A stretch of 64,000 bases of DNA, from the IMG/VR virus record IMGVR_UViG_3300045988_122866, positions 90,982 to 154,981 of that record, one strand, 5' to 3'. The position numbers were made by a program, and so were the translations under genes. Below the pieces are notes generated by a model. That model was not told the origin of the DNA. It made no database searches and was given only the letters and a program-made list of their open reading frames with translations. Origin of the DNA: a virus. Positions 49,869 to 49,957 of the stretch are shown one piece after another; within the stretch, counting starts at the first letter, position 1; each line of letters opens with the position of its first letter.

Positions 49869-49957
49869 CAGCCCCGCTGGGATTTGAACCCAGAACGACT
49901 CCTTCAAAGGGAAAACGGTTTTAGAGACCGCCGTGTTAACCATTACACTACGGGGCA
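49869..49957 (-). tRNA. suppressor tRNA, anticodon CUA (reads UAG); class II-like long variable region; discriminator G73; no encoded CCA
   Basis: TGCCCCG-TA-GTGT-AATGGTTA-ACAC-G-GCGGT-CTCTAAA-ACCGT-[~21 nt]-CTGGGTTCAAATCCCAG-CGGGGCT-G. Confidence 0.65.

Follow-up and report, generated by a model that had tools for sequence, protein, structure and literature searches.

A tRNA gene in a 64,000-nucleotide stretch of viral DNA (IMG/VR record IMGVR_UViG_3300045988_122866, positions 90,982 to 154,981; hereafter the window) probably encodes a glutamine-inserting amber suppressor of a gut phage that uses genetic code 15, with two anticodon-type arms, the second of which is likely an identity arm. 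The gene lies on the minus strand at 49869-49957 and reads TGCCCCGTAGTGTAATGGTTAACACGGCGGTCTCTAAAACCGTTTTCCCTTTGAAGGAGTCGTTCTGGGTTCAAATCCCAGCGGGGCTG. Judged from its sequence and from its relatives, it is best described as a tRNA-Gln-type body with two tandem anticodon-type arms: the first carries the anticodon CUA, and the second, located in the variable region, is a conserved Gln-anticodon hairpin.

ARAGORN called a tRNA with anticodon cta at 49868-49957, and the Rfam tRNA model RF00005 was matched over its full 1-71 with 57.7 bits, as compared to a gathering score of 29 (E = 7e-10 for the whole window). In the covariance-model alignment the anticodon-arm position is occupied by GCGGU/CUCUAAA/ACCGU, and 17 of the 21 nucleotides (nt) that make up the variable region are an insertion relative to the model. 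The loop CUCUAAA has 7 nt, sits on a 5-bp stem and carries U33 and A37, as expected for an amber-suppressor anticodon. A first-pass annotation of this DNA had proposed a CUA tRNA at this position and named ARAGORN as a suitable check; the two programs bear the proposal out, and the structural details it listed (GUGU/ACAC, CUGGG/CCCAG, U33-CUA-A37, U1·U72, G2:C71, G10, G73 and the 21-nt variable region) are correct. ARAGORN labels the gene 'Pyl', which rests on the anticodon alone. tRNA-Pyl is characterized by a 6-bp anticodon stem, a 3-nt variable loop, a small D loop without G18G19 and an atypical T loop, and could be ruled out here on the basis of the 5-bp anticodon stem, the GG in an 8-nt D loop, the standard UUCAAAU T loop and the 21-nt variable region.

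The gene is the only CUA tRNA in the window and is part of an array of approximately 22 tRNA genes (35.7-60 kb of the window). CCA is encoded by most genes of the array, the exceptions being the CUA tRNA, Asn, Glu and two degenerate tRNA-like genes. The CUA gene recurs, identical or with 1-2 different positions, in at least 12 related contigs in which the order Tyr-Sup-Val is conserved, and the helices of its family covary over 19 relatives, with 89.5% of cells paired versus 71.5% in shuffles.

With the 18-nt CUA arm as an exact query against IMG/VR and the metagenome collection, the identical 18-mer was found in 32 viral (IMG/VR) and 103 metagenome stretches. Scans of the collections with an IUPAC/NNN pattern (GTGTAAYGGTTARCAC...NNN...) gave zero despite known matches and were not read as absence. 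The 18-nt arm occurs both in plain class I tRNAs of 72-78 nt and in tRNAs of 86-97 nt, and 22 distinct long sequences, including one from phage Phass-1, form a family with the window tRNA. In all 22, the 'variable arm' consists of a short stem with a 7-nt loop at its end. The loops are CUUUGAA (in the group of the window tRNA), CUCUGAA, CUCUGAC, UUCUGAG and CCUUGAA, and follow the pattern [C/U][U/c][C/U]-U-G-A-N, which is that of a tRNA-Gln anticodon loop with UUG or CUG in register. The 33-equivalent is a pyrimidine, nearly always U, and the 37-equivalent is A; among the 19 relatives the 35-, 36- and 37-equivalents U, G and A are invariant, while the 34-equivalent toggles between C and U.

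The stems that carry these loops are diverse (UUCC/GGAG, UCC/GGA, GCC/GGC, CCA/UGG, CACGG/CCGUG and GCA/UGC). The three core pairs are always formed in the 19 sequences (GC 8, UA 8, CG 3; CG 17, GC 2; CG 15, AU 2, GC 2), with compensatory changes at all three, and no fewer than five different stems bear the conserved loop. With two non-canonical layers (U·U; U:G or A·G) the second stem can reach five layers, and RNAalifold independently predicts the same five-arm structure. The 4-6 unpaired nt located 3' of the second arm resemble a class I variable loop, and the last of them can form the 15:48 pair; in the window tRNA the last U of the CGUU linker can pair with A15, and this A15:U48 is replaced by G15:C48 in the relative L157. 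The Ser-like class II variable arm described in the first-pass annotation thus gives way to a hairpin whose stem has 3 Watson-Crick pairs and 2 non-canonical layers, whose loop has 7 nt and which is separated from the T stem by 4 unpaired nt, in a tRNA that is devoid of C11:G24 and G1:C72 and whose loop copies the tRNA-Gln anticodon loop.

When the 17-nt CUA hairpin was removed in silico, ARAGORN called a tRNA-Gln(ttg/ctg) in 10 of 11 variants, and the shortened window tRNA was called tRNA-Gln(ttg). We also compared arm-deleted sequences with approximately 1150 phage tRNAs by global alignment, and found no clear nearest isotype for the body among them. The top matches were a mixture of Glu, Asp, Thr, Gln and Val, and we therefore do not derive the gene from any one tRNA-Gln gene. 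In locus L191, a phage tRNA-Gln(UUG) has the same D arm and the same CUUUGAA loop. Origins from the neighbouring tRNA-Tyr, which has CGGUCU-N-UAAAACCG in common with the gene, and from tRNA-Ser(GCU), which has the D arm in common with it, were considered and dropped, since both segments are widespread in phage tRNAs.

All distinct long tRNAs in the loci that we fetched served as a control set. The Gln-type loop is present in 23 of 30 long CUA tRNAs, in none of 35 long UCA tRNAs and in 2 of 163 long Ser, Leu and Tyr tRNAs. The long CUA tRNAs that do not carry it have other bodies (the Ser-like L127, the Tyr-like L014, L173 and a G1:C72/A73 family). Two of these deserve mention in their own right. 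L127/L278, an 83-kb contig that is also found in a Gudongella metagenome-assembled genome (MAG), has the same CUA arm on a tRNA-Ser-like body (GGAGAGA..., a GUGCA/UGCAC variable stem and G73), and is a candidate TAG-to-Ser suppressor by its sequence features. The CUA tRNA at L014 6079-6165 combines the D and T arms of a phage tRNA-Tyr with a Gln-like acceptor end (U1:A72, G2:C71, G3:C70), and recalls the classical Gln-inserting supF mischarging mutants.

If the second arm serves identity, opal suppressors for Trp should follow the same design, since among the class I enzymes on which recoded phages draw, TrpRS is the second one that reads the anticodon. A scan of IMG/VR for CGGTCTTCAAAACCG yielded 50 distinct UCA tRNAs, of which 35 are 93-100 nt long. 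Approximately 25 of the long ones have tRNA-Trp-type ends, mostly A1:U72 with G73, and 21 of these Trp-type tRNAs carry a second hairpin of 4-7 bp with the loop CUCCAAA (12), GUCCAAA (7) or UUCCAAC (2), placed on at least 17 different stems (examples are L303, L309, L317, L330, L343, L349, L392 and L396, within L282-L401 of IMG/VR). In the control set this amounts to a Trp-type loop in 21/35 long UCA tRNAs, as compared to 0/30 long CUA tRNAs and 0/163 long Ser, Leu and Tyr tRNAs. Deletion of the UCA hairpin left 17 sequences that ARAGORN called tRNA-Trp(cca). In the same scan, nine tRNA-Sec-like long UCA tRNAs have ordinary long variable arms without a cognate-anticodon loop; SerRS, which charges tRNA-Sec, ignores the anticodon. 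By these sequence comparisons the prediction held: the same two-arm design exists for UCA and Trp, and stop anticodon and second loop are matched, CUA with YUG and UCA with CCA.

The arrangement in the UCA tRNAs is that of the window tRNA, namely a D arm, N26, a 17-nt stop-anticodon hairpin (often on the same GCGGU/ACCGU stem), a linker, the cognate hairpin, a loop of 4-5 nt and the T arm, with an acceptor end that fits the cognate identity. They differ in that they read UGA, are of Trp type and would be served by TrpRS, and in that they have second stems of greater length (4-7 bp) and extended, A-rich linkers. The window tRNA conforms to the general layout, with a stop hairpin directly after N26, a cognate hairpin with a 7-nt loop, a 4-6-nt loop before the T arm and a cognate acceptor end. 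Two unusually long tRNA-Ile(UAU) genes of 96 and 95 nt (L014 7718-7813 and L147 263-357) have extra-arm loops, CGAUAAAAAC and CAGAUUA, that contain GAU, the anticodon of the major tRNA-Ile. They may represent a third cognate-anticodon-arm case, again in a tRNA whose anticodon is difficult to recognize, although with two cases and imperfect loops the resemblance could be due to chance.

The need for a CUA decoder is apparent from the genes of the window. When TAG is read as sense, 54 in-frame TAG codons are found in 26 of 63 minus-strand open reading frames (ORFs), and the true stops are TAA (57) and TGA (5). Pfam domains extend across TAG codons in several cases (Phage_lysozyme2 plus Amidase_2, Aldo_ket_red, NAGPA, HNH and GIY-YIG), and 43 of the 54 sites fall within conserved alignments with relatives, in agreement with the first-pass claim that the tRNA supplies the decoder for these codons. 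In the closest database relatives of the endolysin (P0001 and P0002), the called protein differs from the standard-code translation of the contig, indicating that the gene callers had read TAG as sense there. On this comparative evidence the in-frame TAG codons are real and are read through.

The endolysin is the best-documented client of the suppressor, and was aligned pairwise and locally with 120 homologues. Its TAG at residue 146 ('FERPKD-X-S') faces Q in 112 of 116 homologues, and Q, E, K, R and D are found opposite the remaining seven; of the 928 residues aligned to its eight TAG sites, 31 are Ser, Leu or Tyr. An orthologue from locus L007, 71% identical, has CAA at 3 of the 7 sites where it carries a sense codon. 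We then compared TAG sites at the codon level with the DNA of relatives from 274 loci, using minus-strand genes only and requiring conserved local context; as it uses DNA, this comparison is free of database-translation bias. Window TAG codons face sense codons for Q in 23 of 101 site-codon combinations, followed by K (16), E (12), I (8) and R (7). In the reverse direction, TAG codons of relatives face window codons for Q in 43 of 123 combinations, followed by K (17), E (12) and N (11). The Gln codons opposite TAG of relatives are mostly CAA, which is two substitutions away from TAG (34 CAA versus 4 CAG in an interim tally). When likelihoods were computed with substitution tables taken from these alignments, Gln came out as the maximum-likelihood residue in either direction, ahead of Lys by 13 and 45 nats, while Ser, Tyr and Leu fall 93-124 and 121-253 nats below Gln in the two directions.

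As judged by these alignments, TAG is glutamine in this phage ('code 15'), and the window tRNA is very probably a Gln-inserting amber suppressor. The first-pass annotation had left the amino acid open and had recommended larger alignments of TAG sites; the comparative evidence now settles on Gln. One of its clues, the WxC-TAG-CxCG sites where paralogues have Gln, stands, since relatives have CAA and CAG there among other codons, although the 'DUF559' label given to these CxC-repeat proteins was not reproduced and Pfam returned only a sub-threshold DUF2726. The opposing clue, a Leu at RII-TAG-KHD, stems from paralogues, and the orthologues have CAA or TAG at this site. Reading of TAG as Gln (code 15) is known in many gut phages (10.1101/2021.08.26.457843; PMC9523058; PMC10607447), and Gln at TAG has been shown at the protein level for other phages (PMC9523058; PMC12636597).

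How such a tRNA would be charged is a question of identity elements. In E. coli, Gln identity resides in U35, G36, the acceptor stem (1-72, 2-71, 3-70), G73 and the 10-25 pair, and a weakened 1:72 pair makes amber suppressors insert Gln (PMC9976931); we employed this set, which is that of E. coli GlnRS and may not be the rule of the host. The window tRNA has U1·U72 and G73, and in the 19 family members 1:72 is never G:C (12 mismatched, 6 U:A, 1 A:U), while G73 is found in 15 and the 4 with A73 have U1:A72. G2:C71 is present here and in 18/19 members, and G10:C25 is present here, with G:C in 14/19. The weak 1:72, G73 and G10, already taken as pointers to Gln in the first-pass annotation, agree with the Gln obtained from the TAG-site comparison. 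The decoding arm, with C34 U35 A36, is without G36, a loss inherent in all amber suppressors; the second arm, with U34 U35 G36 A37, displays the full Gln anticodon set.

GlnRS and TrpRS depend heavily on the anticodon. We put the chances that the second arm is an identity element for the charging enzyme at about even. In the mechanism that we propose, the gene would be transcribed within the tRNA array, trimmed, provided with CCA by a host enzyme and charged with Gln. The CUA hairpin, placed after G26 in the canonical anticodon position and with an A37 A38 context typical of efficient amber suppressors, would read UAG on the ribosome in competition with RF1. The second arm would be a retained or copied tRNA-Gln anticodon arm displaying UUG and, together with the Gln-type acceptor end and G10, could offer the enzyme the full YUG including G36. 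The enzyme would be the host GlnRS or, in hosts without GlnRS, a non-discriminating GluRS followed by GatCAB. Non-discriminating GluRS needs a (modified) U34 (PMC9976931), and the UUG arm would thus matter even more in such hosts. The enzyme could bind the second loop as a tethered anticodon stem-loop or through alternative stacking of the five-way junction, as opposed to canonical docking. Identity, read by the synthetase, would in this manner be uncoupled from decoding on the ribosome, and complete products of TAG-containing late genes (endolysin, tail fibres, homing endonucleases) could then be made, in line with the late-gene model of Borges et al. The identity of the charging enzyme, its reading of the second arm, and expression and processing of the tRNA, including CCA addition, are what we infer from sequence. 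More tentatively, and at somewhat less than even chances, phage stop suppressors in general may have evolved a five-arm layout with two anticodon arms, in which the original cognate arm (YUG or CCA) is kept as an identity arm for GlnRS or TrpRS.

Several observations weigh against the mechanism proposed for the window tRNA. The 3:70 pair is C:G here (13/19 in the family; G:C in 5/19), and not the G3:C70 of E. coli tRNA-Gln. The known complex of GlnRS with its tRNA has the variable region pointing away from the enzyme, and the junction would thus have to be flexible or rearranged for the second arm to be read. With 3 Watson-Crick pairs here the second stem is short, and its length (3-5 bp in the Gln family, 4-7 bp in the Trp family) and the linkers vary; the arm thus cannot dock exactly in the manner of a canonical 5-bp anticodon arm, and the variable length and flexible linkers suggest a tethered or restacked arm. 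One clear exception to the loop pattern is a 98-nt CUA tRNA located beside a two-arm member (L111 476-573), whose second-arm loop UCUUAAC contains UUA, an ochre-reading triplet. In three relatives (L197 42-114, L203 66-137 and L204 1073-1147) a class I CUA tRNA of 72-75 nt occupies the same slot beside tRNA-Tyr, with U1 opposite C72 and G73 in L197 and L204, and C1 opposite U72 and G73 in L203; L204 has, in addition, a separate tRNA-Gln(UUG) close by. With single-arm CUA tRNAs present in close relatives and functional in E. coli extract, the second arm is not indispensable. Lastly, endolysin homologues carry both Lachnospiraceae and Muribaculaceae names, and either GlnRS or the GluRS/GatCAB route may apply.

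The strongest competing explanation, which we consider unlikely and yet a serious contender, keeps the Gln suppressor and denies the second arm a role in charging, which would then depend on U35, the weak 1:72, G2:C71, G73 and G10 alone. The arm could be a relic of the insertion of a CUA hairpin between positions 26 and 27 of a tRNA-Gln gene, or have a different function, for example in folding or stability, as a handle for a modification enzyme, as a shield against or a decoy for an anticodon nuclease, or in binding to an anticodon-sensing partner such as a T-box leader. Single-arm CUA tRNAs do suffice in some settings: E. coli extract supported the insertion of Gln by 28 of 29 phage tRNA-CUA, single-arm ones among them (PMC12636597), and classical suppressors with a weakened 1:72 insert Gln without an extra arm (PMC9976931). 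The class I tRNAs in the same slot in relatives of the window phage and the unfixed length of the second-arm stem point in the same direction. A neutral relic is difficult to reconcile with U35-, G36- and A37-equivalents that stay invariant while compensatory changes have exchanged the stem five times or more, or with the recurrence of the design, with a cognate CCA loop, in UCA suppressors and its absence from tRNA-Sec. The other functions predict the pairing of CUA with YUG and of UCA with CCA less directly than does recognition by a synthetase.

It is improbable that the tRNA is a dual decoder, in which the five-arm junction could stack either hairpin under the D stem. One Gln-charged tRNA would then use its CUA arm for UAG and its UUG arm for CAA/CAG, and the gene would double as the phage's own tRNA-Gln. 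The second loop does keep the U33- and A37-equivalents needed on the ribosome, CAA is the main Gln codon of the phage and the second arm here has UUG, and the sampled arrays of the phage group, which cover part of each genome, serve 18 amino acids without a separate tRNA-Gln. Against this, ribosomal decoding is highly sensitive to anticodon-arm geometry, and the second stem has 3 Watson-Crick pairs here and 3-7 bp across both families. In addition, the two-arm tRNA of group B phages is accompanied by separate genes for tRNA-Gln(UUG) and tRNA-Gln(CUG).

A class II suppressor inserting Ser, Leu or Tyr, as do supD, supP and supF, with an extra arm read by SerRS in the first case, is very improbable. 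The long extra arm and G73 are superficially like those of tRNA-Ser, the D arm is like that of tRNA-Ser(GCU) of the window, the anticodon stem-loop is like that of the neighbouring tRNA-Tyr(GUA), and a genuinely Ser-like CUA tRNA exists elsewhere (L127/L278). However, the residues opposite TAG are Q, K, E and R; S, L and Y seldom occur there and lie far down the likelihood ranking given above, and the second loop is a Gln anticodon loop. Leu and Tyr tRNAs use A73, and the window tRNA has G73, and C34 where tRNA-Tyr has G34; a supD-like tRNA-Ser has G1:C72 and G2:C71, C11:G24 and a long variable stem, of any sequence, joined through no more than 1-2 unpaired nt, and is contradicted by U1·U72, U11:A24, an arm of 3 Watson-Crick pairs followed by 4 unpaired nt, and a conserved loop sequence. 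Just as hard to credit is a pseudogene whose task falls to another suppressor encoded outside the window: the missing CCA, the mismatched 1:72, the degenerate tRNA-like genes of the same array and a window of 64 kb out of a genome of roughly 160-200 kb would allow it, but the gene is near-identical in at least 12 related contigs with Tyr-Sup-Val synteny, all of its helices are intact and covary across the family, and the weak 1:72 is a conserved family trait and a known Gln determinant.

The elements of the tRNA and the TAG-containing genes that bear most directly on its function are listed in Table 1.

Table 1. Elements of the CUA tRNA and selected TAG-containing genes, in window coordinates
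Feature	Position	Strand	Support or remark
Whole tRNA gene, 89 nt to discriminator G73	49869..49957	-	ARAGORN, Rfam RF00005, sequence
Acceptor stem, 5' strand UGCCCCG; U1 unpaired versus U72; G2:C71; C3:G70	49951..49957	-	
D arm GUGU-AAUGGUUA-ACAC, G10:C25	49933..49948	-	Compensatory changes at 3/4 pairs
Decoding arm GCGGU-CUCUAAA-ACCGU, directly 3' of G26	49915..49931	-	Covariance-model alignment
Anticodon CUA (reads UAG), flanked by U33 and A37 A38	49922..49924	-	
Second anticodon-type arm UUUCC-CUUUGAA-GGAGU; layers U·U, U:G, U:A, C:G, C:G	49898..49914	-	Covariation, RNAalifold
Second-arm loop CUUUGAA, copy of the tRNA-Gln(UUG) anticodon loop; UUG at 49905-49907	49903..49909	-	
4-nt linker CGUU, second arm to T stem; like a class I variable loop	49894..49897	-	
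T arm CUGGG-UUCAAAU-CCCAG	49877..49893	-	100% paired; compensatory changes at 4/5 pairs
Acceptor 3' strand CGGGGCU plus discriminator G73 (49869)	49869..49876	-	
Endolysin, Phage_lysozyme2 plus Amidase_2, 8 in-frame TAG, best-documented client	13685..14986	-	
Mtd_N-type tail-fibre paralogue, RII-TAG-KHD site at codon 19	40592..41167	-	Orthologues CAA or TAG
CxC-repeat protein, 5 TAG including YWKC-TAG-CECG	27735..28523	-	Relatives have CAA, CAG, AAA, CGA, CGC, TTA there
Aldo/keto-reductase plus 4Fe-4S protein, 5 in-frame TAG	60030..61034	-	Aldo_ket_red residues 10-201 across TAGs

The window has 33% G+C, with nearly all coding on the minus strand, and its phage-type genes include DNA ligase, GyrB, a GyrA-like protein, AAA_24, PhoH, Mtd_N tail-fibre paralogues, an endolysin, HNH and GIY-YIG. 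The 10 kb around the tRNA did not match INPHARED phages by megablast, and the tRNA itself gave a distant blastn match to Phass-1. Many relatives are found among IMG/VR contigs of approximately 160-200 kb and in human gut metagenomes, including Hadza samples, and the window is part of a gut phage of roughly 160-200 kb. A search for related loci with the protein encoded at 60030-61034 gave no confirmed relative, and the larger ORFs of the window, which covers approximately one third of the genome, showed no synthetase, release factor or amidotransferase. The only bacterial-genome match to the tRNA is L277 (CAMELE010000001.1, 163,874 bp), in an 'uncultured Mollicutes' MAG that is a GTDB species representative; it carries a group-A two-arm tRNA one base off that of the window, in the same order Tyr-Sup-Val-Pro-Ile, and is probably a phage genome binned as bacterial.

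Other features of the array and its surroundings were recorded in passing. At 36288-36427 (minus strand), a 140-nt Rfam tRNA match is a homologue of the tRNA-Lys(UUU) of L197 (15209-15283) with an insertion of approximately 65 nt in the anticodon loop; either the insertion is intron-like or the gene is disrupted. Rfam alone recovered a tRNA at 52783-52857 (minus strand, 46 bits), which has the loop CCUCUAA (UCU, with C33 and not U33), no GG in the D loop, a UUUAAGU T loop and no CCA. It resembles the tRNA-Arg(UCU) of relatives, such as L112 4188-4270, and looks like a decaying copy of it. The tRNA-like gene at 59878-59948 (minus strand) has a 6-nt anticodon loop, AUUUAA ('anticodon tt' in ARAGORN), and a RAGATH-33 RNA (RF03102, 126.8 bits) lies inside the array at 37504-37632 (minus strand). 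In L033, the tRNA-Asp(GUC) at 2624-2700, next to a two-arm suppressor, has a 3' end, GGGTTCGAACCCCAGCGGGGCTGCCA, identical to that of the suppressor and a poorly paired acceptor stem; its homologue in L035 is normal, and the L033 gene is the product of either gene conversion or chimeric assembly. Immediately upstream of the region with the tRNAs and RAGATH-33, a gene for an 832-residue protein with the major-vault-protein domains MVP_shoulder and Vault_3 (30746-33241, minus strand) lies approximately 1 kb from one for a DUF2828/DUF7788 protein (34193-35719, minus strand). Together with an SPFH/Band_7 protein at 17229-18611, they form an unusual set for a phage.

A suppressor of a recoded phage must change the very anticodon on which GlnRS and TrpRS rely, and a second, cognate arm would be a concrete answer to the question of its charging, which has been stated as open for code-15 phage suppressors (10.1101/2021.08.26.457843). 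If the proposal is correct, unmodified host enzymes would charge these suppressors efficiently, and identity and decoding would be uncoupled in nature. The tRNAs would form a new structural class with five arms and two anticodon loops, their second loop would be a signature from which the amino acid of a suppressor tRNA could be annotated, and they would offer synthetic biology a natural blueprint for tRNAs in which one module sets identity and another sets decoding. Should the second arm prove to have no role in identity, the strict pairing of CUA with YUG and of UCA with CCA would still be a conserved feature in need of an explanation.

An amber suppressor inserting Gln at TAG in a gut phage is of a well-known kind, and its two-arm architecture appears to be undescribed. 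No second anticodon arm was found in the full-text literature that we searched, and as most subscription journals lay outside this search an earlier description is possible. The layout is absent from the paper on Phass-1, although the genome of this phage has a member, from a 2025 screen of 213 phage suppressor tRNAs (PMC12636597), and from reviews of tRNA identity and of non-canonical tRNAs. Code-15 phages with tRNA-Sup(CUA) include crAss-like, Lak and 'gemstone' clades and Phass-1 (10.1101/2021.08.26.457843; PMC9523058; PMC10607447; PMC12636597). The window phage resembles them in being a low-GC gut phage with a CUA tRNA, in the in-frame TAG codons of its genes for lysis and structure, in the alignment of TAG with Gln and in that no synthetase gene is seen nearby. 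In Phass-1 (OQ749652), the gene annotated as tRNA-Sup-CTA at 62445-62532 is an 88-nt member of the two-arm family. The difference lies in the architecture, since the published code-15 suppressors are described as ordinary and many phage CUA tRNAs are plain class I molecules of 72-78 nt.

E. coli supE and the Gln-inserting mischarging suppressors (amber tRNA-Ser with changes at 1-72 and 3-70, and amber tRNA-Asn with a weakened 1-72; PMC9976931) are comparable in that they have CUA with U35, a weak or absent 1:72, G2:C71, G73 and G10, and insert Gln. The amber tRNA-Ser, which is long-armed, was switched to Gln by two acceptor-stem pair changes (PMC9976931), indicating that a long extra arm does not prevent glutaminylation. 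These suppressors have a single anticodon arm and lose G36, whereas in the window tRNA a second arm restores a YUG loop and 3:70 is C:G instead of G:C. Class II tRNAs (Ser, Leu, bacterial Tyr and Sec) and allo-tRNAs (PMC5389517; PMC7609411) also have an extra paired arm, located between the anticodon and T arms, and approximately 90 nt. In class II variable arms, length and orientation matter and the sequence is not conserved (PMC7609411), while the family of the window tRNA conserves the loop sequence, with a short stem and 4-6 unpaired nt after it. Its acceptor/T configuration is 7/5, and not 8/4 or 9/3.

Hairpins that mimic an anticodon arm and are read by a synthetase exist outside tRNA, as in the operator of the E. 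coli thrS mRNA. Other examples are the HIV-1 tRNA-like element bound by LysRS (PMC5113203) and anticodon mimics in yeast mRNAs bound by aminoacyl-tRNA synthetases (PMC6542539). Like the second arm, all of these display a cognate anticodon loop on a hairpin, and theirs attracts the matching synthetase; they are located in mRNA or genomic RNA and serve regulation or recruitment. The putative mimic described here is carried by a decoding tRNA, beside its real anticodon arm, and would serve aminoacylation itself.

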